Program-made: the position numbers and the translations under genes
Part shown: positions 16,916 to 59,981 of the stretch, piece after piece
Position numbering within the stretch: position 1 is the stretch's first letter
Layout: every line of letters starts with the position of its first letter
Assembly (NCBI GenBank): GCA_022520065.1
Contig: GCA_022520065.1_3942.1
DNA: 64,000 bases
Direction: 5' to 3' (one strand)
From: a phage
Notes under the pieces: model-generated
The model's input: the letters and a program-made list of their open reading frames with translations, nothing else
Database searches by the model: none
Told to the model about the DNA's origin: nothing

Positions 16916-24934
<8,019 letters not shown>

Positions 24935-35613: not shown

Positions 35614-35668
35614 TCCTATATAAGATACAGTATAAGGTACTCTTCCATGAGCACCTTGTCAATACTAA

Positions 35669-38368
35669 TTAGTGAACCTCAAGCCAGCTTTTACCAACCT
35701 TACCAGTACCTGTAACAAGTGTTTCTTTCTTAAGACCTAAGTTCTTAGAAGCTTGCCCGTAATACCAATCAGTAACTGCTTTTACTTCTGCCGTCATACT
35801 CTCTGGACATTCCCAGCTTGTCTCATCGTGATATGCGCACAATAAGCGAGCACCTATAGCTGGTTTACGCCCATTTAGTTTCATCAACCCTTCGTCAATC
35901 ATGCGACGACAAGCAAGGTTAATTGCCTCATTTTGAATCTGGGCCTCTGAACCCATCAAAAGGTAGTTCAACAGTTTGTGTGGAGATTTACACCACAACC
36001 AAGCTCCAGCAACCTTTACAAAACCCCCTTTAGAAATTGCAGCAGTCTTACCAAACACCTCTTCAAGTACCTTTTTAGTTGCTTTGTAGTCAGCTTCCAA
36101 GTCATCTAACAGCTTCTTAATTTTAGGCAAACGTATAAAGTAAGTTTGTTTAGTCAGTGCACCTTCCTGAGTAGTTGCAGCTTTAATCGTCTTAGCAAAC
36201 TTCTCATCCCCTGCACCGAACAGCAGTGCATAGATACCATTCTTAGCTTTCTTACGACCCTTACTAATCTCATGGAGAAGATTCTCATCCTGAGTAGCTC
36301 GACAAGTCAAGATATCCTGCTCATCATTCAAGCTAAAGTAGATACTGTTCAGTGTATGTGCATCAGTCCCTGAATAGACAACGTACAGGTCATTCTCAGA
36401 GTCATAACGAAGGTACTTATCAATCTCTGGGTTTAGGTACTCATCAAAATGTTTGCAGTAATAGCGTCCATCTTCTTGACGAATAAACTCAATCTCTTCT
36501 TTACCTTGCGTTACCGCTTTGGTGAACTCTTTATCACCCATAAAGTTACAAAGAAGAACTAGCTGGGCTGAGTTCATATCTACAGAGACAACGTTAGTAC
36601 CTTCCTCACAAATCCACACTGCCCTCATTGGTTCCCCATAGACAGCAGCACCAGACGGTACGTTTACAATACCATATTGTGTCATACGTCCAGTTGAAGT
36701 ACCAAACACCATTGCGCCAGCACTAAGGCGACCATCAGGACGAATCTGGTTCAACCAACCTTTTTCATCATCCTTTGAGTTCTCAATAGTTCTGCGTCTG
36801 TGCATCAAAGTATAGTACTTAGCAATCTTCTGTCCAAGCTCACCTTCAATCGTATCATAAGATGATTCCGTAAGTTTTGGTGAAGTACGGATTAAGCAAG
36901 GTTCAAGCAAATCTGTGTACTTCTTCACAGACCAGTTATGCTCGATGTACTGGACGCCTTCATGCTCGACATAACTCAAACCACACCGTTCAACCATCTC
37001 CTGCCACTTAGGATGCTTTGTAATCATCTTTTTGTTGTCTTTGAAACGACAAACTTTGACAGGGCGACCATCTGAGTCTTTCTTGTAGTTCCAGTCATCT
37101 GGAATCCAACCAACTGATTTCAAGTAGTCTTTAACAACTGCTACCTGAGTCATACGAGAAACTTCAAACTCAATTGGTGTATATGGTGCATCAATCAATC
37201 CTGTGTAGCGACTTGAATCCAGTTCAAAGTGGTTAACAACATGGCTGTTATAGTACTTCACAGTCTTAACTGTCTTCACTGGCTTCCAGTCTTTGCATTT
37301 CTTACCAATCTTTGCATTCAACTCGTTGCAAATTGCACGAGCATCCTTCATTGCTACAAAACCTTCCTTGTACTCTTCACCAGTTACAGAGTTGGTTGGT
37401 GTATAGCAATTTCTCTTTTCAATGTTAAAAATCTTTGTAGTTGGCTTACCAAATGGCTTGATTTCATATGTCTGCATCTCACCGTTACGTACCTGCTGAC
37501 GGTACTTCGTCTTAGGGTACTTGGTAATTCTCTTCAGTCCATCTGCATGACCGAACGCTTCAACATACTCATTCCAAGCTTTTGCAAACTCTTCTCCAGT
37601 AACTTTACCTTTAGTCTTAATAGTTGGAGGAAGATGTGGTTCAACTTCTGAAGCAAGCTCATTAGTCAACTTGTCAAGTTCCTTCACATGGAACTCCATA
37701 AGCTCTTTATCAGCTTTCCAACCATTGATAGCTTGTTGACTCATCCAGAAAGATGTTTCTTTAGCTCGCATATAGGTTTCATAAGTGTCTATACCACACT
37801 TCTTTAACTTCAGGTATTCATTATCCAGTGCACATTTAGTTTTGGCGTTAATACGGATATCTTCTACAACACGAGTGAAGATTTCTGCATTCCATACACC
37901 CCAATGTTCAATCTCTGGTTTACGTACACCAACACGAGCACCCCATGCTGCCAAGCCATGAGCACCTTTATAGCCTTTTGGAGTTGGTCTATCCATCCAC
38001 TGAACACGAGATTGGATAAGAGAATCCTGAAAGAAATTACTCCACGGCTTACACTTTGGATTATCAAAGTTCCATAAATCAGGTGCAATGTGATTGAAAA
38101 CCCACCAGTCATAACCCAGACCATTATGGATGCAAAGTCGTTTCGCCTTTAATGCAAACTCAATACCTTCACGCAAACCACCCTTAATGTACTTGGTGTA
38201 CTTGTGACCGAGGATAGGCTCATCTGTAAAAACCCATACAGGTGGCTCTTCATCATCAGATTTATAGTCTGCGAAAGCCATTACGTGCACTTTAGTGAAC
38301 TCAAGGAGTAAACCATCAGTTTCTGTATCACCAACTAAATGTAAGTTTTTAAAATCTACGTTTTCCAT
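35669..38368 (-). CDS. DNA polymerase, family A, with 3'-5' exonuclease domain
   Basis: Exo motif VGDTETDGL, polymerase motifs (VSVDMNSAQLVLL, KNGIYALLFGAG, CAYHDE); start set to ATG 38368 with AGAGGGA RBS. Confidence 0.85.
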   Translation of the reverse strand: MENVDFKNLHLVGDTETDGLLLEFTKVHVMAFADYKSDDEEPPVWVFTDEPILGHKYTKYIKGGLREGIEFALKAKRLCIHNGLGYDWWVFNHIAPDLWNFDNPKCKPWSNFFQDSLIQSRVQWMDRPTPKGYKGAHGLAAWGARVGVRKPEIEHWGVWNAEIFTRVVEDIRINAKTKCALDNEYLKLKKCGIDTYETYMRAKETSFWMSQQAINGWKADKELMEFHVKELDKLTNELASEVEPHLPPTIKTKGKVTGEEFAKAWNEYVEAFGHADGLKRITKYPKTKYRQQVRNGEMQTYEIKPFGKPTTKIFNIEKRNCYTPTNSVTGEEYKEGFVAMKDARAICNELNAKIGKKCKDWKPVKTVKTVKYYNSHVVNHFELDSSRYTGLIDAPYTPIEFEVSRMTQVAVVKDYLKSVGWIPDDWNYKKDSDGRPVKVCRFKDNKKMITKHPKWQEMVERCGLSYVEHEGVQYIEHNWSVKKYTDLLEPCLIRTSPKLTESSYDTIEGELGQKIAKYYTLMHRRRTIENSKDDEKGWLNQIRPDGRLSAGAMVFGTSTGRMTQYGIVNVPSGAAVYGEPMRAVWICEEGTNVVSVDMNSAQLVLLCNFMGDKEFTKAVTQGKEEIEFIRQEDGRYYCKHFDEYLNPEIDKYLRYDSENDLYVVYSGTDAHTLNSIYFSLNDEQDILTCRATQDENLLHEISKGRKKAKNGIYALLFGAGDEKFAKTIKAATTQEGALTKQTYFIRLPKIKKLLDDLEADYKATKKVLEEVFGKTAAISKGGFVKVAGAWLWCKSPHKLLNYLLMGSEAQIQNEAINLACRRMIDEGLMKLNGRKPAIGARLLCAYHDETSWECPESMTAEVKAVTDWYYGQASKNLGLKKETLVTGTGKVGKSWLEVH

Positions 38369-42854: not shown

Positions 42855-43110
42855 TAGTTATAAAAGAGAGGGGTTCATACCCTTCTTTGAAGAAAAAAGT
42901 TTAAATGAATTTCAGGAAGAGTGTTTGACAAAGGTTGATAGGTTCTATAGAATGCTCTACATGAAATGTGATGGAGGCGTTGAGGTAGAAGAAAAGTTCC
43001 ATCACAGTATGATAACAGTCACTATTACTATACCTCGACATAATATTGGTTGGCTGTTTATAATTAAAGAAAATGTGTTTGAATATCAAGTATATCGGAG
43101 AATATCATGA
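42829..43110 (+). CDS. hypothetical protein
   Basis: ORF overlapping primase-helicase 3' end; start uncertain. Confidence 0.3.
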   Translation: MTARLKLSDSYKREGFIPFFEEKSLNEFQEECLTKVDRFYRMLYMKCDGGVEVEEKFHHSMITVTITIPRHNIGWLFIIKENVFEYQVYRRIS

Positions 43111-43256
43111 AACACTCTAAAGCATTTGAACAAGTTTTTGGGGATTCCTTAAAAGCCACTGCTGGTAAACCAGCAAAATACTATGAAGAGAAGCGTGTAA
43201 GAACTGGAAAAACTGCACGTAAAACAGCTTCTAAAGATAAGCACAACTTCCAGTAA
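43107..43256 (+). CDS. hypothetical small basic protein (49 aa)
   Basis: Short ORF below the track cutoff, read manually; ATGA-coupled to upstream ORF. Confidence 0.25.
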   Translation: MKHSKAFEQVFGDSLKATAGKPAKYYEEKRVRTGKTARKTASKDKHNFQ

Positions 43257-43263
43257 TTAATGT

Positions 43264-43292
43264 TTGACAATAGAGTATCAACAAATTAGAAT
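43264..43292 (+). promoter_or_regulatory. sigma70-like promoter TTGACA-N17-TAGAAT upstream of the SSB-like gene
   Basis: Exact -35 at 43264-43269, 17-nt spacer, -10 TAGAAT at 43287-43292. Confidence 0.55.
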
Positions 43293-43328
43293 TGGTACTC
43301 TTCATAAATTGAGATAGAGGTTTAAATA

Positions 43329-44186
43329 ATGTCTAAAGTTGTTAAAATGAAAGCTCCGGTAGAGAAGTACAATGGTACTGAACGTCAAACTCTGCGTTAC
43401 CTTCTGAAAGATGTTTGGTTTTATTACCTGAACACTTCACCACGTCCGGGAAAAGGTAAATCTATTGATAAGAAATTCCCAGGCAAAGATTGTAACTACA
43501 GTGTTTCAATTCTGGCAGAAGATGGTAACAAGCTGTTTAAAGAGTTTACTAAGTCTAAGAAAAACCCAGAAGGTTGGGATAAAGTTACTACTGAAGCAGT
43601 TGATGCAGATGACTTCGAAGAGAAGTTTGGTTGCAAACCACCATTTGAAGCAGACACTTACTACATCTTGAAAGTAAGTCGTGCAGCAGCTTATAAAGAT
43701 GGTGCTGTGTGGACAGCTAAACAGTCATTCCCTGTAATGCTGATTGAAGAAGTAAATGGTAAGCGTGTAGCTGTTAAACAGCCGATGAAGAAAATCAAAG
43801 CTCAAGCATCCGATAAACATGAAGATGACAAGAACTATGATGTAATTCATCCAGATATTGCAGTTGGTAACGGTTCTTTTGGTAGTGTGATTCTTTCTAC
43901 TCACTTCTACACTTTTGAGAACAATGTTCTGACAAAACCTATTCAGGAACAGTTTATCATTGACACCCTTGTACCTTACACTGGTGGTAACGGTGCTAAC
44001 GGTGAACCTGAACTGGATGAAGACGAACTGGCTATGCTTGGTCTTGACGGTGTTGAAGATAACGGTGAAATCACTGAAGAAGACGCAAAAGACCACAAAC
44101 CTTCGAACAATTCTGATGATGGTGACGATGAAGACTTGCCAGACCCAGATGACGAAGAAGATGAAGACTTCGATACAGAAGACTAA
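43329..44186 (+). CDS. single-stranded DNA-binding protein (T7 gp2.5-like, probable)
   Basis: Extremely acidic C-terminal tail ending DEEDEDFDTED; between primase-helicase and exonuclease; strong promoter upstream. Confidence 0.55.
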   Translation: MSKVVKMKAPVEKYNGTERQTLRYLLKDVWFYYLNTSPRPGKGKSIDKKFPGKDCNYSVSILAEDGNKLFKEFTKSKKNPEGWDKVTTEAVDADDFEEKFGCKPPFEADTYYILKVSRAAAYKDGAVWTAKQSFPVMLIEEVNGKRVAVKQPMKKIKAQASDKHEDDKNYDVIHPDIAVGNGSFGSVILSTHFYTFENNVLTKPIQEQFIIDTLVPYTGGNGANGEPELDEDELAMLGLDGVEDNGEITEEDAKDHKPSNNSDDGDDEDLPDPDDEEDEDFDTED

Positions 44187-44205
44187 TCTCTAAAAGTTAC
44201 TTTAA

Positions 44206-44232
44206 AGCCCTGTACTTAGTATGGGGCTTTTT
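44206..44232 (+). terminator. Rho-independent terminator after SSB-like gene
   Basis: Short stem gccc/gggc with 13-nt loop followed by ttttt; weaker than the others. Confidence 0.4.
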
Positions 44233-44248
44233 CATATGGAGAGTCACA

Positions 44249-45295
44249 ATGGAGAAGTACACATTAAAAAAACTTCCCGATTCAGTTACACATGTCTTTA
44301 TTGACTCTGACAGTATTGCCTATAAAGGTGCTTGTGTAGTTGAGAAAGCAAAATATAAATATGTCAATAAACTCACAGCAGAAGAATCTGAATCATTTGA
44401 TAATGCAAAAGATGCTGCAAGATGGTTAGCAGACCAGAGAATCCTTGTAGAAGAGCTTGGCCTAGCATTTGATGAAGATGAATGGGAAAGACAGACTTGG
44501 AAAGAAGCTAAGAGTGAAAAAGAAGCTATCATGGCTACTCAGCAGGTTCTTCAGGAATGGCTTAAGGTTGTTGGTAAAGAAAGAACTTGGGTAGGTTATT
44601 TAACAGAGAAGGGTGTACATAAACATAAAGACATTAAAGGTCTTGAGCACCAATATCAAGGTAACCGTAAAGAGGCTGTCACACCAACACACTTAGTTGC
44701 TTGTCGTGAATATCTTTTATCCAGACCAGAGTTCAAGCTTTTAAAGGGTGGCTTCGAAGCTGATTCAATTGTAATTGCTAAAGCTGAAAAGATGGGTAAG
44801 AAAGCTGCTCTTATGAGTATTGACAAAGACCTTCGACAAGCTGAAGGAACTTATTGTATTGATATGACTTATGAAAAATCACCACTAATTTTTATTGCTG
44901 ATAATAATGTTGGTGATATCTGGGATTGTCCTATCAAATCAAAACCAAAAGCTGCAAAAACAGTTGGTGTAGGTTTTAAATTCTTGTGTTATCAGGCTGT
45001 TGCTGGAGATAATGCAGACAACTACTTCGGCCTAAAAGGTGCTGGTAAAGTAGCTGTGATGAATGCTTTAGAGGGTAAAGAGACCTATAAAGAGTGTCTT
45101 GATGCTATCTATGAACTCTATGCTAAAAAAGAGTCTTACACCTATGTGTCATGGGATGGACAGACTGTTACAAAGACACCGTTAGAGTTAATGGAACAGC
45201 ATTTCTTCCTAGCTTATCAAGAGCGAAATAAATCAGATATTTTTTCATTTGAAAAGTATGGTTGGACTCCAAATGTTGACTCAGCAGATACTTAA
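44249..45295 (+). CDS. 5'-3' exonuclease (T7 gp6-like, probable)
   Basis: Resemblance to T7 gene 6 exonuclease regions (SIDKD, AVAGDNADNYFGLKGAG). Confidence 0.55.
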   Translation: MEKYTLKKLPDSVTHVFIDSDSIAYKGACVVEKAKYKYVNKLTAEESESFDNAKDAARWLADQRILVEELGLAFDEDEWERQTWKEAKSEKEAIMATQQVLQEWLKVVGKERTWVGYLTEKGVHKHKDIKGLEHQYQGNRKEAVTPTHLVACREYLLSRPEFKLLKGGFEADSIVIAKAEKMGKKAALMSIDKDLRQAEGTYCIDMTYEKSPLIFIADNNVGDIWDCPIKSKPKAAKTVGVGFKFLCYQAVAGDNADNYFGLKGAGKVAVMNALEGKETYKECLDAIYELYAKKESYTYVSWDGQTVTKTPLELMEQHFFLAYQERNKSDIFSFEKYGWTPNVDSADT

Positions 45296-45773
45296 AGAAT
45301 ATCTACACTATGACCCCGAAACAGGGGTCTTTACGTGGATAAAGAAATCAGCTAACAGAACAGTTATAGGTTCCATTGCAGGTACACCACATAAGCGAGG
45401 TTATATTAGGATAAAAATTAAAAGAAAACCCTATATGGCTCATGATTTAGCAATCCTGTACACAGATGGTTTCCTACCTAACAGAGTAGACCATCGCAAC
45501 GGCATTACTAATGATAATCGGAGATTAAATCTAAGGGTTTGCACACAAGCTGAAAACTCTTGGAATAGAAGAACACACTCCAACAACACATCTGGAGTTA
45601 AGGGTGTATCTTTCTATAAGGCTAACCAAAAATGGAAGGCCAGAGTTATGACACACGGAGTATCTCACTTTCTGGGGTATTTTGACAGTATTGAAGATGC
45701 CAAAGATGCAGTCACAAAGAAAAGAGAAGAACTACATAAAGAGTTTTCAAATCACGGAGAAGCTTATGAATGA
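45273..45773 (+). CDS. HNH homing endonuclease with AP2-like DNA-binding domain
   Basis: HNH core VDHRNGITNDNRRLNLRVCTQAENSWN and YKANQKWKAR AP2-like segment; start uncertain (45258 or 45273). Confidence 0.65.
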   Translation: MLTQQILKEYLHYDPETGVFTWIKKSANRTVIGSIAGTPHKRGYIRIKIKRKPYMAHDLAILYTDGFLPNRVDHRNGITNDNRRLNLRVCTQAENSWNRRTHSNNTSGVKGVSFYKANQKWKARVMTHGVSHFLGYFDSIEDAKDAVTKKREELHKEFSNHGEAYE

Positions 45774-46267
45774 AGATTAAAGGATTTGGCAATTGCCCCA
45801 CCTATGGTCATTGGGTATCTTTATGTGGGGAAGTTGACCCCACTAAACATTTTGGCTTTGTCTATTTAGTACACTGTAAGAAGACTGGACAATATTATAT
45901 AGGAAAGAAACAGCTTAACAGTGTGACCAAAAGAAAAGTTGCTGGGAAGACTCGGAAGAAGGTAGTCACTAAGGAAAGTGATTGGATGACTTACGAAACC
46001 TCTTCTGAGTATATTAAAAAAGATATTGAGAGCTTTGGAAAAGAATTTTTTGACTTTTACATTATCCAAACCTACTACACAAAAGGTGGCCTAGTCTATG
46101 GTGAAGCAAACCTTCAACATAAATTCGATGTAATGACAAAAAGGATTGACTCGAAGCTCAGACTCTTCTACAATGCCAATATTGCAGCAATTAAGTTTAT
46201 TACTAAAGAAACTTATGAAGATGCTGAAAAAAGAATCCATAAGGTAATGAAAGCAAATTGTGCTTGA
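45770..46267 (+). CDS. GIY-YIG-like endonuclease (putative)
   Basis: GFVYLV ... GQYYIGKK resembles GIY-YIG motifs. Confidence 0.45.
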   Translation: MKIKGFGNCPTYGHWVSLCGEVDPTKHFGFVYLVHCKKTGQYYIGKKQLNSVTKRKVAGKTRKKVVTKESDWMTYETSSEYIKKDIESFGKEFFDFYIIQTYYTKGGLVYGEANLQHKFDVMTKRIDSKLRLFYNANIAAIKFITKETYEDAEKRIHKVMKANCA

Positions 46268-46288
46268 TAACTATTGAGAGAGAATAAA

Positions 46289-46519
46289 ATGTTTAACAAA
46301 AGCAAAGCTGTGAGTCATGTAGCAAAAGTTGACAGTAAGATTGAAGAACTTGAGCGCATTCTTGCAAATGCTAGAGAGTCAATAATTAAAGAAGTTGAAG
46401 CTGTTGAATCACAAATGCAGCATCTAATACTTAAACGCCAAGAGCTACGTGAGCATCTGGAATATATTGAAACACGAGAGCTAAAGGTTAACAGATTTTT
46501 AAGGAGTCCAAATGTTTAA
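46289..46519 (+). CDS. hypothetical coiled-coil protein
   Basis: Start set to ATG 46289 (track TTG 46274). Confidence 0.4.
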   Translation: MFNKSKAVSHVAKVDSKIEELERILANARESIIKEVEAVESQMQHLILKRQELREHLEYIETRELKVNRFLRSPNV

Positions 46520-47267
46520 CTCAAGAGAAGCAGTAAAAAACTGGAATCTTCGTTGTGGAAACACTCAAAAGCAACCTTACAGTGATGAGTATTGGGAATC
46601 TTTAAAATCCCAGTCTCTGTGTATGCTGGAAGAAGCAAAAGAGCTTGTAAAAGCAATTGAAGAGAAAGACCCCATTGAGACACTGGATGCTCAGGCAGAT
46701 TTGCAATATGTTCTTGACGGTTTGATTTACCTGTCACAACATGACCATAACGGTGCTATGAAAGCTGTTTGCCGTAATAATGACCTGAAGTACACAGATG
46801 ACTATGAAGAAGCTTTAAAACGTCTTGCAGATATTGAGAAGCGTACTGGTCAAGAGTGTATTATCAGAATGTCAGTAGTTGATGGTAAAGAGTGGTATGC
46901 CATTGTTCGTGCAGCAGATGGGAAGATTATGAAGCAATCGAATCTCCCTAAAGTACAGCTTGGTGAATACATTGTAGAACTTGAAAGCCAAGAACTTTTT
47001 GTGGTAGTATCTGAGACATGCGTTATCTGCAAAGGTATTGTAGATAGTTTAAAGGATTTGGGTGTAGATGGTTTTGTAGAAGTTAATCCAATTACCTCTA
47101 AAGCAGATAAAGACTTCTGTAAAGAGAATGGACTATGGATTGCAGACATTATCTACTATGATGGTGAGCAGTTCCATGTAACCTCATACCCGAAACTGAA
47201 TTATGATGCTAATAACCTGAAGTGCTGGTTAAAAGGGGTTGGTTATAATGGATTCACAGAACATTAA
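46512..47267 (+). CDS. hypothetical protein (possibly MazG-like nucleotide pyrophosphohydrolase)
   Basis: Strong AAGGAG RBS; EEAKELVKAIEE ... DAQADLQYVLDGL loosely resembles MazG EExxE/DxxD motifs. Confidence 0.35.
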   Translation: MFNSREAVKNWNLRCGNTQKQPYSDEYWESLKSQSLCMLEEAKELVKAIEEKDPIETLDAQADLQYVLDGLIYLSQHDHNGAMKAVCRNNDLKYTDDYEEALKRLADIEKRTGQECIIRMSVVDGKEWYAIVRAADGKIMKQSNLPKVQLGEYIVELESQELFVVVSETCVICKGIVDSLKDLGVDGFVEVNPITSKADKDFCKENGLWIADIIYYDGEQFHVTSYPKLNYDANNLKCWLKGVGYNGFTEH

Positions 47268-47571
47268 TAAAGAGGGTGTGGCTCAGAAGAGCCACTTCTC
47301 AAACTACAATATTTCTATGACGGTGTTTATGAATGACCCGTTACTAGAAAAATATGGTGAGACTCCAGATACACTTCTGGACAATGAACAAGTTTTAAAA
47401 GCAGTCCTGTACAAATACGGGATTGATATTGAGAAAGAATATTCCTTTGAAATCTGCCAACACAGGAATACTTTCGGTAAAGTTGTGATGGCTCCACTCT
47501 TTATGGGTGTAGAAAGGACTGACTATGGTTGGTTGTATCTAAAAAGAAACTTGGAGAAATACCGTGTCTAA
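47247..47571 (+). CDS. hypothetical protein
   Basis: ORF, start set to ATG 47247. Confidence 0.4.
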
Positions 47572-47902
47572 AGCAAAAAAGCTATCTTATGATGATATTG
47601 TCTCAGGTGCTAAGTTAGGCGTTGACAGCCTCGGACAAGATGTTAAGCACGGGGACACAGTTATGTACTGTGATGACCGAAGAGGTAGAAGTGCAATCTT
47701 GTTTGGAAGAATTGTTTGCAAGATGCGAGGCAATTACGTTGTTGCAGACATGGATGTGAACGTTACACAAAAACTTGAAACACTTATGGATGATAATACA
47801 TCATCATGGTTCTCCCTGAATTGTATGCACACTTCTTCAGTCACAAAAGTAAGTGATAAGTTTTACGATATGTGGCAGAATGAGCAAATTTTCAAGATTT
47901 AA
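47564..47902 (+). CDS. hypothetical protein
   Basis: ORF with putative GTG start and GGAG RBS; followed by terminator. Confidence 0.4.
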   Translation: MSKAKKLSYDDIVSGAKLGVDSLGQDVKHGDTVMYCDDRRGRSAILFGRIVCKMRGNYVVADMDVNVTQKLETLMDDNTSSWFSLNCMHTSSVTKVSDKFYDMWQNEQIFKI

Positions 47903-47908
47903 ACTAGG

Positions 47909-47930
47909 GAGCCTCTTCGGAGGCTCTTTT
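47909..47930 (+). terminator. Rho-independent terminator
   Basis: Hairpin gagcctc-ttcg-gaggctc followed by tttt. Confidence 0.65.
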
Positions 47931-47948
47931 CATCTGTAGGATTCAAAA

Positions 47949-50183
47949 ATGATTAAGACAATTAAAAAATCAAACGGTACAGTAGTAAGCTTTGACCCAG
48001 AAAGACTGAATAAGTGGGCATCATGGGCAGATAAACGTGGAATTATCTGGTCAGAAGTCACTATGGAAGCTATGAAACGTGTCTATGAGGGTTGCACTAC
48101 AAAAGAGATGCACCAAGCCATGATTGATGTTTGTGTTGATAAACAAACTCAAGAGTACTCAGATATGGCTGGACGACTGCTTTTGGGTATTATCTACAAA
48201 GAAGCCTTTGGAGGCTTTACTAAGGTTCCTACGCTGGTTACCTTCGTTAAAAATATGGAGAGAGCAGGACTTTGGGAGAAGATGGACTACTCACAGGAAG
48301 AGCTTGAATACCTGCAAGGTTACATTGTGCACTCAAAAGATATCTCTTACGGTTATGCAGTCTTGAAACAGTTCAGAGACAAGTATGGTATCCGTGATAT
48401 TAAAACGGGAAGACTTTTTGAGTCACCACAATTTATGTTTATGGGTATGGCTATGAAAGCCTTTGAGAAGCAACCAAAGCACCGTAGATTACAAGATGTT
48501 ATCAAGCTGTACACTTACCTATCTGACCTGAAGATTAACGCTCCTACACCTTATTTAAACGGTTTAAGAGCCACCAAGTCAGGTTATGCGTCATGTTGTT
48601 TGATTAAGGCGAACGATACTGCTGAGTCTCTAGGTATTGCTGCAAAGGTTGCTTATGACATGACTACAAAGCAAGCTGGCATTGGTATGCTGATGGAGAC
48701 TCGCACTATTGGTGATGGTATCCGTCAAAACACGATTGAGCACATGGGTAAGCTGCCTTATTATAAGCTTGTACGTTCATCTGTAGAGGCAAACAAACAG
48801 AAGAGTCGTGGTGGTTCAGCTAATAACTTCTACACTGCTCTAGACCCGCAGATTGAAGATTTACTGCGTTTGAAGCACCCTACAACGGTTCCTTCTAAAC
48901 GTATTAACGAGATGGACTACTCATTCGGTACAAATGATTATTTCTGGCAGTGTGTTCAGTATGATACAGATTGGTTGCTATTCTCTTACAAAGATGCACC
49001 AAAACTCTATGACATGTTCTACACAGCATCTGCTGACGAGTTTGCTATGGCAGTTGGCCATGCAGTACATTCAGGTGTTAAGCACAGACGGGTAAAGGCT
49101 CGTGAAATTGCTAAGCTGTTTATTCAACAGCGTTATGCTACAGGTCGTGTGTATCCATTCTTCACTAACAATGCAAACACACATACACCATTTAAAGAAC
49201 CATTGAAGATGTCAAATCTTTGTATGGAAATTGTATTGCCAGTGTATGGTTTTGAGAAAGAGACAGACCTTTACAGAGACGATGCTGTGAAAGAGGATGG
49301 TGAGGTGGCTCTTTGCTTCCTAGCTAGTTTGGTTGCAGGGAGAATTTCAGAAGATGAATACGCTGACGTTGCTTATTATGCTCTTGCAATGGTTGACTCC
49401 GTTATTGACCTTATGGATTATCCGTATCCGTCGATGCGTAACCATGTTCAGAAGCGTCGTTCTGTTGGGATTGGCCTTACAAATGTGGCTCATTACCTTG
49501 CGAAGAACTACGTGAACTACTCTTCACGAGCAGGTAAAACGAAGCTTCATGAGCTTGCTGAAATGCACTCTTACTATCTGCATGAAGCCTCTCTGAGACT
49601 TGCTAAAGAGCGTGGTGTTCCAGAATACATGAAGTTCACTAAGTATCCTGAAGGCTGGGTTCCTCCAAAGACAGCTAACAAGAAGATTGATGAAAAGCAT
49701 GATGCAAAACTACGATATGATTGGGATGACTTAGCACAACGTATCAAAGAAAATGGTGGAATCCGAAACTCTGTATTAGAAGCTTACATGCCTAATGAGA
49801 GTTCTTCACTAGCAACTAATACGACAAATGGCTTGTACCCAATTCGTGACTTTATTTTAACTAAAAAGTCTGCAACTGGTAACGTACTGTTTATTGTTCC
49901 AGATTATGAAGAGTTGAAGTATGTATATGAAATTGCTTGGGGTATTGACACCTTTGACCTGATTGATTGTTATGCAATTGTTCAAAAGTTCACTGGTCAG
50001 GCTATCTCTTCAGACTTCTATGTTGACTATGCAAAGTCTAAGAAGGTATCATTGGCTCAAGCTCTGAAGTACATGATTTATGCCAACTCGGTAGGTATGA
50101 AAACCATGTACTACCTTAACAGTCGCATTGGTGTAGGTAAATCTGCACTGCAAGATGCTTATTGCGAGGGTTGTGGTGTTTAG
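47949..50183 (+). CDS. nrdA: ribonucleotide reductase class I large subunit
   Basis: N-terminal ATP-cone-like region, catalytic NLCMEIVLP motif, C-terminal cysteine pair CEGCGV. Confidence 0.9.
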   Translation: MIKTIKKSNGTVVSFDPERLNKWASWADKRGIIWSEVTMEAMKRVYEGCTTKEMHQAMIDVCVDKQTQEYSDMAGRLLLGIIYKEAFGGFTKVPTLVTFVKNMERAGLWEKMDYSQEELEYLQGYIVHSKDISYGYAVLKQFRDKYGIRDIKTGRLFESPQFMFMGMAMKAFEKQPKHRRLQDVIKLYTYLSDLKINAPTPYLNGLRATKSGYASCCLIKANDTAESLGIAAKVAYDMTTKQAGIGMLMETRTIGDGIRQNTIEHMGKLPYYKLVRSSVEANKQKSRGGSANNFYTALDPQIEDLLRLKHPTTVPSKRINEMDYSFGTNDYFWQCVQYDTDWLLFSYKDAPKLYDMFYTASADEFAMAVGHAVHSGVKHRRVKAREIAKLFIQQRYATGRVYPFFTNNANTHTPFKEPLKMSNLCMEIVLPVYGFEKETDLYRDDAVKEDGEVALCFLASLVAGRISEDEYADVAYYALAMVDSVIDLMDYPYPSMRNHVQKRRSVGIGLTNVAHYLAKNYVNYSSRAGKTKLHELAEMHSYYLHEASLRLAKERGVPEYMKFTKYPEGWVPPKTANKKIDEKHDAKLRYDWDDLAQRIKENGGIRNSVLEAYMPNESSSLATNTTNGLYPIRDFILTKKSATGNVLFIVPDYEELKYVYEIAWGIDTFDLIDCYAIVQKFTGQAISSDFYVDYAKSKKVSLAQALKYMIYANSVGMKTMYYLNSRIGVGKSALQDAYCEGCGV

Positions 50184-52055: not shown

Positions 52056-54200
52056 ATGAACAAAGTACAGATTATTAAAAAGAATGGCTCACTTGAAGAA
52101 CCTGATATCAAAAAAGTTTTAGCAGCAGTAACTAAGTCAGCTAACAGAGTTGGTTATAAAGAGCTTCCACCAGATGTTACTCAAGCTCTTGAGTCAGCAT
52201 TTATGAGGATTCTGGTAAAGTCCACTAAACAGAATAATTTGCTAATTTCTGTAAATGATATTCACAGTATTGTTGAGGGTGCTTTGGCAGAAGTCAATCA
52301 CGAGATTTATGAGTCTTACTCAACATATAGAAATTACCGTAAAGAAGTTGCTCAAAATTGGGATGAGCTTTACCAGAAGACCAAAGATACACTCTTCTTA
52401 GGTGACCGAGAAAACGCTAATTTTGACAGCAGTTTAATTTCTACAAAAGGTTCAATTATTCGTGGTTATCTGACTAAAGAAATCTTTAAACAGTACCACT
52501 TAACACCAGAGGAACTTGAAGCCATTGAAAAAGGGTTTATCTATATCCATGATTTAAGAGACCTAATTTTTGGTGGTATCAACTGTTGCCTGTTTGACAT
52601 TGGTAAAGTCCTGAAAGGTGGCTTTGAAATGTCTGGCATCGAATATTGTGAACCGAAGTCTGTACTGTCAGCCTTACAGGTTATTGGTGATGTAGTTCTT
52701 TCAGCAACTGCACAGCAATTTGGTGGCTTTACTTTAGCAGAGATTGATAAGGTACTCATACCGTATGCTAAGAAGTCTCTACGCTATCATGCTGAGAAAG
52801 CAGCATCTTATGGTATTCCTAAAGAACATTACCACAATTATGTCATGGAGCAGCTACAGATTGAACTGACTCAAGGTTTCCAGTCACTTGAAATGAAACT
52901 AAACACTGTACCTTGTAGTCGTGGGGATTTTGCATTTACAACTTTAACATTTGGGTTGCTCGACTCAGATATGTCTAATGAAGACAACCGACTACAATAC
53001 ATGATTGCAAGTACTCTCCTAGATGTTCGTATGAATGGACAAGGTAAGAGCAAGAAGCCTGTTGTATTCCCTAAACTGGTTTATATTTATGACCAGAAGA
53101 GACACGATGAGAATATCTGTCAAGGACACCTGTACAGTAAAGCTATAGAGTGTTGCTCTAAAGCGATGTATCCAGATTTCTTAAGTGTATCTGGTCATGG
53201 TGCTGTAGCAGAAGCTTTTGAGCGTTCTGGCAAGGTTATTTCGCCGATGGGTTGCCGAGCGTTCTTATCTCCGTATCTTAACGAGAATGGGGAAGAGTTC
53301 TACGTTGGTCGTGCTAACATTGGTGCTGTATCTTTGAACTTACCAATGATTTACCAGTATTCTAAAGAGAACGGTTTAGATTTCTGGAAAGAGCTTGATA
53401 AGTACCTAGAAATGATTCGCAGCTTCCACAAGAAACGTTACGAAATGATTGCTAATATGCCAGCAAGTTCTAACCCTCTTGCATTTACACAAGGTGGTCT
53501 GTATAAAGGAACTAAGAAGCCTACTGACAGGGTTGGCTGGGATATTGTGAAGTCCTTCACAGCTTCTTTTGGGGTTACTGCGCTTGATGAGTTATCTGTT
53601 CTTGCTGAAGGTAAACGACTTCATGAAGTTGGAAGCTATAGTTTTGCATACGATGTTCTGGCGTACATCAACATGAAAACTGAAGAGTTTAAAAATGAAG
53701 ATGGTTTCTTATATGCAGTCTATGGCACTCCAGCAGAATCACTATGTGGGACTCAGCTAAAACAGTTCAGAGATATGTTTGGGGTTATCAAAGGTGTTTC
53801 CGATAAGGAATACTTTACAAACAGTTTCCATATGAATGTTGTAGCAGACATCTCACCATTTGAGAAGCAGGACTTAGAAGAGCCATTCTTCCATATCTGT
53901 AGAGGCGGTAGAATCCAGTATGTAAGAGTAGCTAACCCAGAAAACTTATCAGCACTTAAAAGTTGTATTACTAGAGGGATGTTGAAGGGTTTTTATCAGG
54001 GACTTAACTTTGACTTAGCAATCTGTGAGCATTGTGGTAACAGACCAAAGGCTGATGTTGAAGAATGTGAGGTTTGCCATTCACATGACATCTCTGTGAT
54101 TAACAGGGTGTGTGGTTATCTTGGATGGACTAAGATTAAAGGTGAATCACGAATGAATGATGCAAAAATCGCTGAGATTCGTGACAGAGTTTCTATGTAA
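52056..54200 (+). CDS. nrdD: anaerobic ribonucleotide reductase (class III)
   Basis: C-terminal glycyl-radical motif RVCGYLG and zinc ribbon CEHCG ... CEVCH. Confidence 0.9.
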   Translation: MNKVQIIKKNGSLEEPDIKKVLAAVTKSANRVGYKELPPDVTQALESAFMRILVKSTKQNNLLISVNDIHSIVEGALAEVNHEIYESYSTYRNYRKEVAQNWDELYQKTKDTLFLGDRENANFDSSLISTKGSIIRGYLTKEIFKQYHLTPEELEAIEKGFIYIHDLRDLIFGGINCCLFDIGKVLKGGFEMSGIEYCEPKSVLSALQVIGDVVLSATAQQFGGFTLAEIDKVLIPYAKKSLRYHAEKAASYGIPKEHYHNYVMEQLQIELTQGFQSLEMKLNTVPCSRGDFAFTTLTFGLLDSDMSNEDNRLQYMIASTLLDVRMNGQGKSKKPVVFPKLVYIYDQKRHDENICQGHLYSKAIECCSKAMYPDFLSVSGHGAVAEAFERSGKVISPMGCRAFLSPYLNENGEEFYVGRANIGAVSLNLPMIYQYSKENGLDFWKELDKYLEMIRSFHKKRYEMIANMPASSNPLAFTQGGLYKGTKKPTDRVGWDIVKSFTASFGVTALDELSVLAEGKRLHEVGSYSFAYDVLAYINMKTEEFKNEDGFLYAVYGTPAESLCGTQLKQFRDMFGVIKGVSDKEYFTNSFHMNVVADISPFEKQDLEEPFFHICRGGRIQYVRVANPENLSALKSCITRGMLKGFYQGLNFDLAICEHCGNRPKADVEECEVCHSHDISVINRVCGYLGWTKIKGESRMNDAKIAEIRDRVSM

Positions 54201-55251: not shown

Positions 55252-55737
55252 ATGAATTACATGGAGATTCGACCATTTGACACAGCTAATGGTGAAGGGG
55301 TTCGTGTAAGCCTCTTCGTAGCTGGTTGTAAGCATCACTGTGAAGGCTGCTTTAATAAGGAATCTTGGAAGTTTAATGCTGGTAAAGAGTTCACTTATGC
55401 AAACCTTTATGGCATCATTAAGTTAATGGATGATAATGCCATCAGTGGGCTGTCAATACTTGGTGGAGAACCTCTAGATGATAGAAATATTCAAGAGGTT
55501 ACCAACATATGCAAACGTATTAAAACCGTTTACCCAGAAAAATCTATCTGGCTCTGGACAGGTTTTCAGTTACATGAAAAAATTCACCTTGATGTGATGA
55601 AATATGTTGACGTGGTGATTGATGGTAAGTATGATTCATCTAAACCAACAGTTAAACCGTATCGTGGTTCAGATAACCAAAACCTCTGGAGAAAAGAGTA
55701 CGGATGGCAAGGTGATTGTCAGTGGAGAGCAGAGTGA
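55252..55737 (+). CDS. nrdG: anaerobic ribonucleotide reductase activating protein (radical SAM)
   Basis: Radical-SAM cysteine motif CKHHCEGC. Confidence 0.85.
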   Translation: MNYMEIRPFDTANGEGVRVSLFVAGCKHHCEGCFNKESWKFNAGKEFTYANLYGIIKLMDDNAISGLSILGGEPLDDRNIQEVTNICKRIKTVYPEKSIWLWTGFQLHEKIHLDVMKYVDVVIDGKYDSSKPTVKPYRGSDNQNLWRKEYGWQGDCQWRAE

Positions 55738-56474: not shown

Positions 56475-56990
56475 ATGTATCTGTCAAACCTGAAACGTTC
56501 GGTTGCAATGTCAGTTCTAAGACTCAGCTTTGATGAGCGTCAAGAGTTTATAGACTCCCACAAATATGACCCTTCAAATTCTAATCACATGGTTCTTTGG
56601 AATCGTGATAACTTCCGTGAAAGAGCACTTGTCCGTTATTACCCACACTACACAATAGATAACCTGTATGAATGGTGTGTTGTGAAGAACACCATTGCAA
56701 CACTGAACAATCTTTGCAGGTATACGGGTAAGCAAACATTTACATTAGGTCATCACAAACCTGTTACAAAAGGTGGTGAACATCACTGTGCAAACTGGTT
56801 TATCCAAACTAAAGCTGATAACCAGAAGCAAGGAGATAGCCTCCTAAGTATCCCTAAGATGACCTATGAAGAGCAAGAGAAATATATCAAAAATAATATG
56901 CCAGATGTGCTTGACAACAACTATACAGATTTGGCAATATCTCTCCTGTTGAAGTTCGAGACAGTTTATAGGGCAACTTATAATGGCTAA
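56475..56990 (+). CDS. HNH endonuclease-like protein (putative)
   Basis: GHHKPVTKGGEHHCANWFIQTKADNQKQG resembles an HNH motif. Confidence 0.45.
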   Translation: MYLSNLKRSVAMSVLRLSFDERQEFIDSHKYDPSNSNHMVLWNRDNFRERALVRYYPHYTIDNLYEWCVVKNTIATLNNLCRYTGKQTFTLGHHKPVTKGGEHHCANWFIQTKADNQKQGDSLLSIPKMTYEEQEKYIKNNMPDVLDNNYTDLAISLLLKFETVYRATYNG

Positions 56991-57261
56991 AGAAAAGTGG
57001 GAGATTTTACCATTAGTCAGTGAAGGAGGTAATGGTTGTGAAATGTACATGATACGTGGTCATGTTCCAGAGCCAATTGCACTTGAGATGGTAAACAACT
57101 TTACAGATGGTTCTTACAAAGACTTAGGCGAACCAACTGTCAAGCAACAATGGGTTAAACCTGTACCAGACAGCACAGGTAACTGTAGTGTACTTTATCA
57201 CGTTGTAGACCCTGCAAAATGCAAATCTGCAATGGCAGTAACAAACGTAACTTTTGATTGA
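56983..57261 (+). CDS. hypothetical protein
   Basis: 92-aa ORF. Confidence 0.4.
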   Translation: MAKEKWEILPLVSEGGNGCEMYMIRGHVPEPIALEMVNNFTDGSYKDLGEPTVKQQWVKPVPDSTGNCSVLYHVVDPAKCKSAMAVTNVTFD

Positions 57262-57272
57262 GAGAGAAAACT

Positions 57273-58154
57273 ATGAAAACATCTATCCGTGTTACAGTTC
57301 ATTCACCAACTAAAGGAACTCATGAAGAAGAGTTTAACATCATCCAATTTCCTTCTGGTGAGATTGGTGGACACTTTTCGCCAGAGTTTGTTGATTTCAC
57401 TGCTTATGCAGCATCATCCATCAACAATGTGATTATGATTGTAAAAGGTTATGATAAGGACACTTTGTTTGCTGTGGCACTTGCTAAAGAAGCAATTGAT
57501 GATTTAATTCCTCATGATTATGCTTTAAAGACTGTCATCTTTTACTACTTACCAAATGCACGTTATGACCGTCACATGTTTAAAGGCGACGCAGCAGCTT
57601 TAAAGGTTTTTGCTAAACAGATTAATGCAATGGGATTTGGCGCAGTCTGTGCAGTTGACCCTCACAGCTATGTACCAGATAACCTGTTTAACTGCTTCCA
57701 GAGTATTCCTCAAAAGGAAATTGCAGTCCACTATGCAAATGACCCACTGATTGATTACTTAGTAGCCCCAGATGCAGGTGCTGCTAAGAAGATTGCAGAG
57801 ACTGCTAAAGAGGTGGATAAACCATACATCACAATGTCTAAAGTGCGTAACCTTAAGACTGGTGAAATTACTGGTATGCGAATCCTTGATGATGTTGATT
57901 TGACAGATAAAACCGTCATGATTCTGGATGACATCTGTGATGGTGGTCGAACCTTCATAGAAGCAGCTAAGCATCTTCGTGAAGCAGGTGCAAAACGTGT
58001 GGAACTCTATGTAACACATGGTATCTTCTCTAAAGATGTTGAAAACCTTCTTGACAATGGCATTGACCACATCTACACTACAAACTCTTTAGGGGAAGCT
58101 AAAGACCGTGGCTTAACACATTATAGCCAAGTTACTGTAGCAAACCTTGATTAA
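57273..58154 (+). CDS. ribose-phosphate pyrophosphokinase (PRPP synthetase)-like protein; candidate ADP-ribose pyrophosphokinase (Adps)
   Basis: Phosphoribosyltransferase PRPP-binding motif VMILDDICDGGRT; about 294 aa; directly upstream of NAMPT-like gene; start set to ATG 57273. Confidence 0.7.
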   Translation: MKTSIRVTVHSPTKGTHEEEFNIIQFPSGEIGGHFSPEFVDFTAYAASSINNVIMIVKGYDKDTLFAVALAKEAIDDLIPHDYALKTVIFYYLPNARYDRHMFKGDAAALKVFAKQINAMGFGAVCAVDPHSYVPDNLFNCFQSIPQKEIAVHYANDPLIDYLVAPDAGAAKKIAETAKEVDKPYITMSKVRNLKTGEITGMRILDDVDLTDKTVMILDDICDGGRTFIEAAKHLREAGAKRVELYVTHGIFSKDVENLLDNGIDHIYTTNSLGEAKDRGLTHYSQVTVANLD

Positions 58155-58199: not shown

Positions 58200-59981
58200 A
58201 TGACTAAATCACTTTATGCAGTACCAGCAGGTTTAAATGCAGATGCTTACAAATCTGGTCATGTTTACCAGTATCCTAGTGCAACAGAATATTTGATGTT
58301 CAACCTGACACCACGTAGCGACAAATGGTTTAACAGTCCATTAGCAATTGATGGTGTAGTCGCTTTTGGTATTCAACGTTTTGTTAAAGATTACTTGATA
58401 GACCACTGGAATGCTACGTTCTTTGAACGTGACAAAAAAGAAGCAATTGACGAAATCTTAGAAGTCATGAATGGTGTTCTGGGCAAAGATGCTATCGGTC
58501 GAGAGCATTGGGAAGCACTTCACGACTTAGGTTATCTACCAGTTGAAGTATACGCTGTAGAAGAAGGCACAGTTGTCCCTATGCGTGTTCCGATGATTGT
58601 TTTCCAGAACACTGTTTCAGGTTTCCATTGGGTAGCAGGTTATCTGGAAGATGCTTTCTCTGCTGAGATTTGGAAGGCTTGTACCATTGCAACTATTGCA
58701 TTGCACTACAAACGTATCTGTAAGAAGTGGGCTGACCTTACTTGTGACAACGACTTGCATTTGCCTTATCAGTGCCATGACTTTGCTATGCGTGGTATGT
58801 CCGGCTTTACTGATGACGCATTTAACGCTGTAGGCCACTTAACCAGCTTTAAAGGAACTGATAGCTTCCCTGCTGTGTATACGGCTAAACGAATCTATGG
58901 ACAGTCCTACCCAATCTCTGATATTGGTAGCTCTGTACCAGCCACTGAGCACTCTGTAATGTGTGCAAACATTGCTTGGGAAGGTGGTAATGAGTTGATT
59001 GAAGAAGAAAGACGCTTTAAAGGTGAGTTACAAACCTTCCGTCGTTTCTTAACAGAAACTTACCCAACTGGTATTGCAAGTATTGTTTCAGATACTTATA
59101 ACTTCTGGAGAACTGTGTCAGAAATCTTACCAGCACTCCGTAAAGAAATTATGGAACGTGACGGTAAACTGGTAATTCGTCCTGACTCTGGAGACCCTGT
59201 ACATATTGTCACAGGGTACAAAGCAATCCATTTAGAGTGTGCTAAAAAGTCTTATTACGAACACTTAAGCAAGCTTGAAGCCAGCGACACAATGTTGAAT
59301 GCTGTTCTGAACATGAAGCTTGAAAACATCAATTATGGTATTGCTGGATGGCTACTGTCAGAAGGCTACGAAATGGTTGTTGACAGAGAAGACTTTGAAG
59401 TTGCTGATACAGTGCTGTTGAAAAACGCATATATGGTTGGTTCTGCAAACGTTGTAACACGTCCTGTAGCAGAGATTGATGGAGCTATTAAGACCTTGTA
59501 TAACATCTTTGGAGGAACTATCAACTCTAAAGGTTTTAAGGTACTGGATGAACATATCGGCCTTATCTATGGTGACTCTATCACGTTGGAACGTGCAAAC
59601 GAAATCCTGAAGCGTCTGTATGAAATGGGGTTTGCAAGCTCTAACGTGGTGTTTGGTGTAGGCTCTTACACTTACCAGTACATGACTCGTGACACCTTTG
59701 CATTTGCTGTCAAAGCAACTCTTGCAAGCATTGGTGGCAAAGAGATTATGCTTGCAAAAGACCCTAAAACAGATAGTGGTGTTAAGAAATCTGCCTTTGG
59801 TGGTGTAGCGCCTATGTGGGATGGTGATAAGTTGAAAGCTGTAGATGGCTACGGATTCCAGAGTTTTGCAGATGTACTTGACCACCCAGCTTGTGCTTTA
59901 CGTTTAGTCTTTAGTGACTCTGAGCAGTTTGGTTACACAACTCTTGGTGATATTCGAAATAATATTGACAAGCAGCTTTAA
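58200..59981 (+). CDS. nadV: nicotinamide phosphoribosyltransferase-like protein (NadV/NAMPT family; candidate Namat)
   Basis: 593 aa; N-terminus NADAYKSGHVYQYP matches the NAMPT DSYK(V/S)xHxxQYP region. Confidence 0.75.
   Translation: MTKSLYAVPAGLNADAYKSGHVYQYPSATEYLMFNLTPRSDKWFNSPLAIDGVVAFGIQRFVKDYLIDHWNATFFERDKKEAIDEILEVMNGVLGKDAIGREHWEALHDLGYLPVEVYAVEEGTVVPMRVPMIVFQNTVSGFHWVAGYLEDAFSAEIWKACTIATIALHYKRICKKWADLTCDNDLHLPYQCHDFAMRGMSGFTDDAFNAVGHLTSFKGTDSFPAVYTAKRIYGQSYPISDIGSSVPATEHSVMCANIAWEGGNELIEEERRFKGELQTFRRFLTETYPTGIASIVSDTYNFWRTVSEILPALRKEIMERDGKLVIRPDSGDPVHIVTGYKAIHLECAKKSYYEHLSKLEASDTMLNAVLNMKLENINYGIAGWLLSEGYEMVVDREDFEVADTVLLKNAYMVGSANVVTRPVAEIDGAIKTLYNIFGGTINSKGFKVLDEHIGLIYGDSITLERANEILKRLYEMGFASSNVVFGVGSYTYQYMTRDTFAFAVKATLASIGGKEIMLAKDPKTDSGVKKSAFGGVAPMWDGDKLKAVDGYGFQSFADVLDHPACALRLVFSDSEQFGYTTLGDIRNNIDKQL

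Follow-up and report, generated by a model that had tools for sequence, protein, structure and literature searches.

Comparison with relatives points to one of three putative homing endonuclease genes in a Felix O1-like phage, an HNH-AP2 gene, as a mobile element

We analyzed a 64,000-nucleotide stretch of phage DNA (NCBI GenBank assembly GCA_022520065.1, contig GCA_022520065.1_3942.1; hereafter the window) that contains three open reading frames (ORFs) read in an earlier note as homing endonuclease genes. Two of these, an HNH gene with an AP2-like segment (HNH-AP2) and a GIY-YIG-like gene (GIY), lie in tandem directly after a 5'-3' exonuclease gene. The third (ORF 56475) lies near nrdG. All three ORFs are present at the coordinates given in that note, with the overlaps of a few codons that it described (Table 1). 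We found that the homing interpretation is partly supported, and that it is right for one of the three ORFs. We think it probable that the HNH-AP2 gene is a mobile homing endonuclease gene, that the GIY gene encodes a core nuclease, and that ORF 56475 is also a core gene, most likely encoding a counter-defense nuclease.

The window is from a Felix O1-like myovirus of the genus Felixounavirus, subfamily Ounavirinae. A 4.7-kb query around the locus matched 259 phage records, and the top match was Felixounavirus LF82P1 (98.1% identity). Comparisons at the level of the locus were made with 16 fetched loci. Allele frequencies are summary counts of records matched by short junction queries.

We found that the HNH gene is optional at a fixed site. 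In VpaE1_ev78, Bas63, Michonne, SUSP2 and many other relatives the site is empty, and the exonuclease and GIY genes overlap by 11 nucleotides (nt). Other relatives, among them wV8, ekra, HY02, Felix O1 and Moogle, have an HNH gene of ~500 bp between these two genes. A 120-nt query spanning the empty junction matched 168 records at ≥80% coverage. A 120-nt query for the left junction of HNH-containing genomes matched 77 records at ≥80% coverage, and a few Felix-type records matched at 77-78%. Based on these two counts, we estimate that ~80-90 genomes have an HNH gene at the exonuclease site and that ~165 have the site empty, so that about one third of genomes carry the gene. The allele type found in the window is present in only 28 records. 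The presence/absence polymorphism that the earlier note expected to see among related genomes is thus found for the HNH-AP2 gene (168 empty and at least 77 HNH-containing records); the GIY gene and ORF 56475 were present in all relatives examined.

The site of insertion can be placed to within 1-2 nt. In the empty allele the junction reads ...AATTGG/GAGCCGTGTATGAATGAAG. In Shigella phage vB_SflM_004 (SflM004) the left and right junctions are ...AATTGG/ACTCCAAATGTTGAC...AATCAG/GAGCCGTGTATGAATGAAG, with the start of the insert also given as ACTCCAAATG. Comparison of these junctions with the empty allele defines a cassette of ~490 bp and, by correspondence, its bounds in the window (Table 1). The insertion point is after a Trp codon, seven codons ahead of the original stop codon of the exonuclease gene. 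The cassette provides the last 10 codons and the stop codon of the exonuclease gene (45266-45295: TPNVDSADT plus TAA), and the exonuclease C terminus differs between HNH-containing and HNH-less alleles. The HNH start codon is embedded in this new exonuclease tail, and the two genes overlap by 23 nt. The old exonuclease tail persists downstream as a relic, which in the window has diverged at four positions. This relic supplies the C terminus and stop codon of the HNH gene, as well as the GGAG Shine-Dalgarno sequence and the ATG of the GIY gene; the HNH stop and the GIY start overlap by 4 nt (ATGA). Because the cassette replaces the end of the exonuclease gene and keeps the downstream ribosome-binding site and ATG, neither neighboring gene is damaged. 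The program that listed the ORFs gives a TTG at 45249 as the start of the HNH-AP2 ORF. We chose the downstream ATG (Table 1), which yields an N terminus (MLTQQ) common to all alleles.

The HNH genes at this site are much more diverse than the genes on either side of them. There are four lineages: A (window and ekra), A2 (Moogle and SflM004), B (HY02 and VpaE1) and C (Felix O1). Protein identity among the four lineages is 53-79%, compared to 93-100% for the exonuclease and the GIY protein within Felixounavirus. SflM004 has Felixounavirus flanks (exonuclease 98.8% and GIY 100% identical to those of the window) joined to a Mooglevirus-type HNH gene. Because SflM004 combines window-like flanks with this HNH type, we conclude that the cassette has moved independently of its surroundings. 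The HNH gene annotated in Moogle encodes only 112 amino acids, beginning at an internal Met. Its apparent truncation is an annotation artifact, since the full 166-codon frame, with the MLTQQ start overlapping the exonuclease gene, is open (Moogle locus 1474-1974).

Divergence between alleles with and without the HNH gene is localized next to the insertion. Compared to the empty-site phage VpaE1_ev78, mismatches in the left flank of the window numbered 16 and 7 in the pair of 50-nt bins closest to the insertion, 0-3 per 50 nt over the next 350 nt, and 7 and 4 in the last two bins (500-600 nt out). The right flank of the window had almost no mismatches to the empty-site phage. Overall, divergent tracts extend ~70 nt to the left for type A and ~150 nt to the right for types B and C. 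The left variant tract follows the presence of the HNH gene and not genus, as seen in Moogle and Michonne. On the right, a ~150-nt variant 5' end of the GIY gene (MRKIKGFGNCPEYGHW... or MIKVKGFGSCPTYGHWI...; window region 45770-45920) goes with types B and C, and type A and empty-site genomes have the other 5' haplotype in common. This linkage may indicate that the HNH lineages differ in target or in cleavage position. The right-flank haplotypes of LF82P5 and SLAM_phiST56 differ, indicating that the end points of tracts vary between genomes. We had considered these two phages as candidate flank recombinants; this was ruled out, as both have Felix O1-type alleles.

This comparative pattern looks like the signature of an active free-standing homing endonuclease gene, in which we infer the cleavage step. 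During co-infection with an empty-site relative, the HNH enzyme would nick or cut the empty allele, at its exonuclease/GIY junction or close to it. In recombinational repair, the HNH-containing genome would then be the source from which the cassette is copied together with a variable length of flank. Co-conversion of flanking markers is a feature of the free-standing homing endonucleases of phage T4. Like T4 SegF, SegG and MobE, the HNH gene in the window is at an intergenic or gene-end position in a DNA-metabolism module and is optional among relatives. The T4 Seg proteins combine a GIY-YIG nuclease with DNA-binding domains; in the window it is the HNH gene that appears mobile and the adjoining GIY-YIG gene that is immobile.

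The HNH-AP2 protein has recognizable nuclease features. It matched Pfam HNH_3 with 31.2 bits (cut-off 24.8; E = 1.6e-7) and PHROG 99 with E = 3.6e-70. The HNH_3 motif is D73-H74...N86...N95, and the sequence VDHRNG...NLR...AEN aligns with VDHKDG...NLR...KIN of I-HmuI (PDB 1u3e). The D-H...N...N motif is kept in all four allele types and in one paralog. At residues ~107-146 there is an AP2-like segment, the pattern of which (SGVKGV...KW.A......LG.FD..E.A) is conserved across HNH alleles and is labelled AP2 in O157 typing phages. The ratio of nonsynonymous to synonymous substitution rates (dN/dS) between types A and A2 was 0.059 at a dS of 1.5, indicating that the gene is maintained and not decaying. 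These results support the prediction, made from sequence, that the product of the ORF is a free-standing homing endonuclease of the I-HmuI type (Pfam HNH_3) that ends in an AP2-like DNA-binding tail.

Mobile genes of this kind are already known, and the position of the HNH-AP2 gene has been annotated before. Among GenBank records, those of wV8, ekra and BPS15Q2, along with others, label the same gene 'HNH homing endonuclease' or 'AP2 domain protein'. A 2010 report described six genes resembling HNH homing endonuclease genes in Felix O1 (PMC3185647), and the combination of HNH and AP2 is a recognized homing endonuclease architecture, the 'IPA-HNH' class (Barth et al. 2023, PMC10448857). As in I-HmuI and the HNH_3-AP2 homing endonucleases, an N-terminal HNH_3 motif is followed by an AP2-like segment. 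As with HNH-AP2 homing endonucleases, the gene is free-standing between essential replication genes, with a presence/absence polymorphism and divergent flanking tracts. Unlike the gene for I-HmuI, it is not intron-encoded, and the similarity to I-HmuI is weak (E = 0.064). Unlike the I-HmuI class, the cassette in the window interrupts a coding sequence in its 3' end, for which it brings a replacement tail.

The HNH gene in the window also differs from the I-HmuI class in holding a 23-nt stretch that is conserved at the nucleotide level, of which we found no mention in the literature searched. The stretch, TATGACCCCGAAACAGGGGTCTT, contains a predicted 6-bp hairpin (GACCCC-GAAACA-GGGGTC; stem 45312-45317 / 45324-45329, loop GAAACA), and an RNA fold of 45250-45350 also predicts the hairpin (z = -3.08). 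All synonymous sites in the stretch are identical in the four HNH allele types and in the paralog bas63_0046, which is at a different site in the genome. Identical codons were used at 8/8 positions within the stretch, compared to 4/45 degenerate, amino-acid-identical codons elsewhere. The exact 23-mer is present in 9/16 of the fetched loci and in 18 stretches in IMG/VR, all on contigs of Ounavirinae size and at times with two copies per contig. Possible functions of the stretch are an RNA control element or an anchor for gene conversion between paralogs.

In contrast to the HNH-AP2 gene, the GIY gene is fixed. A DNA search matched it in 298 records, among which Erwinia, Hafnia and Yersinia phages of the Ounavirinae were represented (66-70% nucleotide identity). 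The match was near full length in 284 of the 298. The order exonuclease, GIY, small ORF, MazG-like gene was kept in 13/13 loci inspected, from phages of six host genera, and was seen in Felixounavirus, Mooglevirus, Suspvirus and the Erwinia, Hafnia and Yersinia phages; in HNH-containing loci the HNH gene is additionally present between the exonuclease and GIY genes. The GIY protein is 100% identical in the window, Bas63 (bas63_0057), ekra, VpaE1_ev78 and SflM004. The dN/dS of the GIY gene (0.035-0.065) is similar to that of the exonuclease gene (0.04-0.09), indicating that purifying selection is equally strong on both.

The GIY protein consists of little more than a nuclease domain. It matched Pfam SegE_GIY-YIG (PF19835) with E = 9.4e-28, with the nuclease domain at residues 21-138 only. 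The catalytic Tyr, Tyr, Arg, Glu and Asn of the GIY-YIG domain are present and are invariant in the family alignment. A profile search of 1.84 billion representative proteins placed 2266 clusters (E ≤ 0.001) in the GIY family, with lengths of ~130 to nearly 400 amino acids. Ten long relatives (267-393 amino acids) all have NUMOD3, NUMOD1 or helix-turn-helix (HTH) modules after the nuclease domain. No NUMOD or HTH DNA-binding module was detected in the window protein by Pfam scan. With no targeting module, a fixed position and tight constraint, the GIY ORF lacks two defining features of homing endonucleases. The proposed tandem of homing endonucleases therefore holds for the HNH-AP2 gene, which is polymorphic at a fixed site, has divergent lineages and moves apart from its flanks, and is not supported for the GIY gene. 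We suggest from its sequence that the GIY ORF most likely encodes a housekeeping or counter-defense nuclease descended from a homing endonuclease nuclease family.

The catalytic domain of the GIY protein belongs to the same SegE_GIY-YIG family as T4 SegE (hhalign E = 3.4e-4). Unlike SegE (205 amino acids), the window protein has no C-terminal DNA-binding region, its YIG motif is followed by an inserted basic beta-hairpin of 19 residues, and its gene is fixed across the subfamily and not optional. There was no match to I-TevI by hhalign (E = 0.23); the top fold match of the structural model was the I-TevI catalytic domain. A single-sequence search of PDB with the GIY protein gave nothing useful. 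T4 endonuclease II (DenA) is a small GIY-YIG enzyme that nicks host DNA. Like DenA, the GIY protein is small and made of a nuclease domain only, and its gene is core, not mobile, and near nucleotide-metabolism genes. This is a functional analogy; the protein has no detectable sequence relationship to DenA, and kinship was rejected (hhalign E = 0.12, probability 0.5%). Also rejected was a zinc knuckle (C9..H14..C19) in the N terminus, since family members do not share the cysteines (H14 and W15 are conserved). The GIY gene may be translationally coupled to the exonuclease gene, and it is reasonable to think that the GIY nuclease may act on host DNA together with the adjoining exonuclease.

The GIY family extends well beyond the Ounavirinae. 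By tblastn, hundreds of T4-like cyanophages and members of other groups have single-copy homologues. The family is carried in GenBank and in PHROGs (phrog_447) as 'NAD synthetase', with hundreds of cyanomyophage records among those so labelled; none of our searches gave an NAD-synthetase signal for the family.

ORF 56475, the third ORF, is also conserved. On its upstream side are nrdG (55252-55737) and then two small ORFs, and on its downstream side are genes for a ribose-phosphate pyrophosphokinase-like protein (57258-58154) and a nicotinamide phosphoribosyltransferase (58200-59981). It is present in one copy per genome, in 278 records by DNA search and 429 by tblastn, the latter including Erwinia phage phiEa21-4 and 150-kb rV5-like coliphages (38-44% identity). 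The protein matched PHROG 3500, a family of unknown function, with E = 4.4e-93 and had weak matches to HNH PHROGs (PHROG 2214, E = 2.3e-6; another, 8e-3). No Pfam nuclease model matched the window protein. Scanning the ORFs against NCBIfam gave no significant names, with IscB at E = 0.035 for the ORF 56475 protein. Neither a single-sequence PDB search nor a profile search with this protein added anything useful. In the family alignment, G92, H93, P96, G100, G101, N107 and N116 are invariant, and an AlphaFold2 model (predicted local distance difference test, pLDDT, 82.9) has a strand-strand-helix arrangement around the motif residues. This is consistent, if weakly, with an HNH (beta-beta-alpha-metal) motif, which we consider probable.

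ORF 56475 is the ortholog of gene 77 of Bas63 (Escherichia phage JohannRWettstein, MZ501086). It is 89% identical to bas63_0077 (21949-22464 in the 32-kb stretch of Bas63 that we aligned) over 171/171 residues, and the Bas63 order of nrdG, small ORFs, bas63_0077, small ORF, prs-like gene and nadV is the order in the window. Deletion of Bas63 gp77 is reported to lower plating ~10-fold on cells with retron Ec67, and a copy on a plasmid to restore plating (PhageMaP preprint, PMC11482910). The authors of the preprint propose that gp77 cleaves the multicopy single-stranded DNA (msDNA) of the retron, and call gene 77 GIY-YIG (PMC11482910). Given this reported effect of the gp77 deletion on Ec67 cells, ORF 56475 is most likely a counter-defense nuclease gene and not a homing endonuclease gene, as the earlier note had proposed. 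The Ec67 phenotype was reported for Bas63 only, and the window ORF would share it by orthology. The N-terminal helices of the protein (residues 11-57, 56505-56645; RLSFDERQEFIDSHKYDPSNSNHMVL) resemble the B-domain motif of staphylococcal protein A. The summed E of 5.7e-9 stems from a repetitive target, each repeat having E = 2-12, and the likeness is probably chance or a shared helical motif.

Several of our observations weigh against the overall reading that the HNH-AP2 gene is a mobile homing endonuclease gene and the other two are core genes. The AP2 match falls below the Pfam cut-off (17.7 bits, cut-off 33.3; E = 0.0044), and the target site of the HNH enzyme is deduced from the junctions and flanking tracts. 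In SflM004 the HNH gene is beside an 'empty-type' exonuclease flank. Since this genome has the HNH gene, self-immunity does not require the variant flank; the insertion may confer immunity by splitting the site, or the tract may be hitch-hiking. The structural model of the GIY protein is of moderate quality (pLDDT 70.6), and falls below 50 around E112-N135. For ORF 56475, Pfam HNH matched 1/11 family members, weakly (E = 0.0085), the top Foldseek match of the model, the Gme HNH nickase, had an E of only 1.5, and an hhalign comparison with an approximate Cas9 HNH segment gave the expected register with E = 0.42. In addition, the GIY-YIG label in the preprint was not reproduced, as none of the 11 family members matched a GIY-YIG model at E ≤ 10. 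An error in the preprint could lie in the domain label of gene 77 or in its number.

If the number is wrong and the label right, bas63_0057, which is the true GIY-YIG gene of Bas63, would be the anti-Ec67 gene, leaving ORF 56475 with no assigned role. The bas63_0057 gene is the sole GIY-YIG profile match among the Bas63 genes examined, and at least one gene number in the preprint is offset from the GenBank tags ('gene 74 = RNR activator', for ribonucleotide reductase, is one off). However, genes 65, 79, 80, 84 and 85, on both sides of gene 77, agree with the GenBank locus tags. An error of 20 is unlikely for a number used consistently in the text and a figure legend, and automated domain labels are more error-prone. 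We consider this exchange of genes unlikely. A different concern is that all three ORFs are homing endonuclease genes after all, and that GIY and ORF 56475 were swept to fixation and persist as selfish elements. Both have nuclease-type motifs and are among genes of DNA or nucleotide metabolism, longer SegE-family members resemble classical homing endonucleases, and the GIY ORF is often labelled 'GIY-YIG homing endonuclease' in GenBank. However, an empty site was seen in none of the ~280-300 related records and in none of six host genera. Both genes are single-copy and syntenic, with single-copy homologues in cyanomyophages (GIY) and rV5-like phages (ORF 56475), the dN/dS of the GIY gene is as low as that of the exonuclease gene, and the GIY protein has no DNA-binding module. 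In the homing-cycle model, an element that is fixed and has no sites left to invade should decay and not stay tightly constrained, and we regard persistence of these two genes as selfish elements as quite unlikely. The earlier note held that conservation in all relatives combined with a lack of nuclease motifs would speak against homing. For GIY and ORF 56475 the first half of this is what we found, but nuclease motifs are present, if weakly in ORF 56475.

The HNH-AP2 ORF could itself be inactive, either as a decaying remnant or as an AP2-based DNA-binding regulator, with its patchy distribution due to ordinary recombination and deletion. AP2 can serve as a transcription-factor domain (Magnani et al. 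2004, as cited in PMC10448857), and our promoter and terminator scan of 43000-48000, in which the number of sites was not above that in shuffled sequence, detected none between the exonuclease and GIY genes and thus no promoter of the HNH gene's own. On the other hand, the ORF is intact with its D-H...N...N residues in all four lineages, the A-A2 comparison indicates strong constraint (dN/dS 0.06 over dS 1.5), and the exact junctions, the crossing of genera apart from the flanks and the localized divergent tracts fit active homing. Inactivity is therefore very unlikely in our judgment. HNH_3 enzymes such as I-HmuI are nickases that cut one strand only. One could imagine a two-component system, shared by every HNH-AP2 paralog of the genome, in which HNH-AP2 recognizes and nicks the target and the GIY nuclease cuts the second strand. 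The genes for the two lie side by side and overlap by 4 nt, no targeting module of its own is present in the GIY protein, and relatives have several HNH-AP2 paralogs per genome. However, the GIY gene is equally conserved in the approximately two-thirds of genomes with no HNH gene there and in Erwinia, Hafnia and Yersinia phages, its homologues are conserved in cyanomyophages, and there is no physical link between the HNH and GIY proteins. We give such a division of labor hardly any weight.

Returning to the reading in which GIY is a core nuclease, a broader scenario can be offered tentatively. The GIY protein might be a domesticated homing endonuclease module, conserved from Ounavirinae to marine cyanomyophages, that now functions in host-DNA breakdown with the adjacent and possibly coupled exonuclease, or in destruction of defense nucleic acid such as retron msDNA. 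The HNH-AP2 cassettes would home to its 5' junction, and the 23-nt hairpin would be a cis-acting control or recombination element common to all paralogs. We think the whole is possible and somewhat doubtful.

Homing endonuclease genes vary among related phages at other sites as well, as the earlier note had expected. We aligned the window to 32 kb of Bas63. The window does not have the homing endonuclease gene that in Bas63 is downstream of the DNA polymerase gene (window 35662-35690; Bas63 stretch 211-767), nor the nrdD intron and its endonuclease gene (window 53253-53257; Bas63 stretch 17828-18574), and nrdD in the window (52056-54200) is uninterrupted. Conversely, the window has the HNH gene at the exonuclease site and Bas63 does not. 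Compared to Bas63, the window is also without ~158 nt after nrdG (bas63_0074) and ~341 nt after nadV (bas63_0081).

The features described here are collected in Table 1. No paralogs of the HNH-AP2, GIY or 56475-56990 ORFs were found elsewhere within the window. Three database records named for phages of other hosts, GU169904.1 (Staphylococcus phage SA1) and MG065664.1 and MG065668.1 (Campylobacter phages A132 and A126), have Felixounavirus sequence across the locus (94-97% identity) and are likely to be mixed or contaminated assemblies.

Table 1. Positions of the features discussed in the text (window coordinates)
Feature	Position	Strand	Basis or remarks
5'-3' exonuclease gene (T7 gp6-like)	44249-45295	+	PHROG 107 exonuclease, E = 5.1e-62
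Exonuclease variant tract tied to HNH	45207-45265	+	FLAYQERNKSDIFSFEKYGW in the window; WIAYQERNPKDNFSFKKYNW in empty-site genomes
Inserted HNH cassette, ~490 bp	45266-45755	+	Bounds inferred from the clean junctions of vB_SflM_004; 1-2 nt ambiguity
HNH-AP2 ORF, 166 amino acids	45273-45773	+	ATG at 45273, stop at 45771-45773
Conserved 23-nt stretch, TATGACCCCGAAACAGGGGTCTT	45309-45331	+	Within the HNH gene; encodes YDPETGVF
Relic of ancestral exonuclease tail	45756-45780	+	GGAGAAGCTTATGAATGAAGATTAA; GGAGCCGTGTATGAATGAAGATTAA in empty alleles; right-junction comparison
SegE-type GIY-YIG nuclease-domain-only protein, 165 amino acids	45770-46267	+	Pfam SegE_GIY-YIG
Conserved 171-amino-acid protein (ORF 56475) with HNH-like motif G92-H93..P96..N107..N116	56475-56990	+	PHROG 3500; ortholog of bas63_0077

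The main value of these results is in correcting annotation. The genes are already annotated in GenBank relatives, and the general understanding of homing endonucleases is unchanged. The precise insertion site and the empty-site alleles are a ready substrate for a test of the HNH-AP2 enzyme. For Felix O1-like phages used in therapy or biocontrol, our results indicate that one 'homing endonuclease' of the replication module is truly mobile and marks a hot spot of recombination by which the phylogeny is locally distorted. The GIY gene, annotated as 'GIY-YIG homing endonuclease' or 'NAD synthetase', and the 'hypothetical protein' gene on the nrdG side would be conserved core nuclease genes, not selfish DNA to be dispensed with in engineering, and the product of the latter appears to be a factor in counter-defense against a retron.

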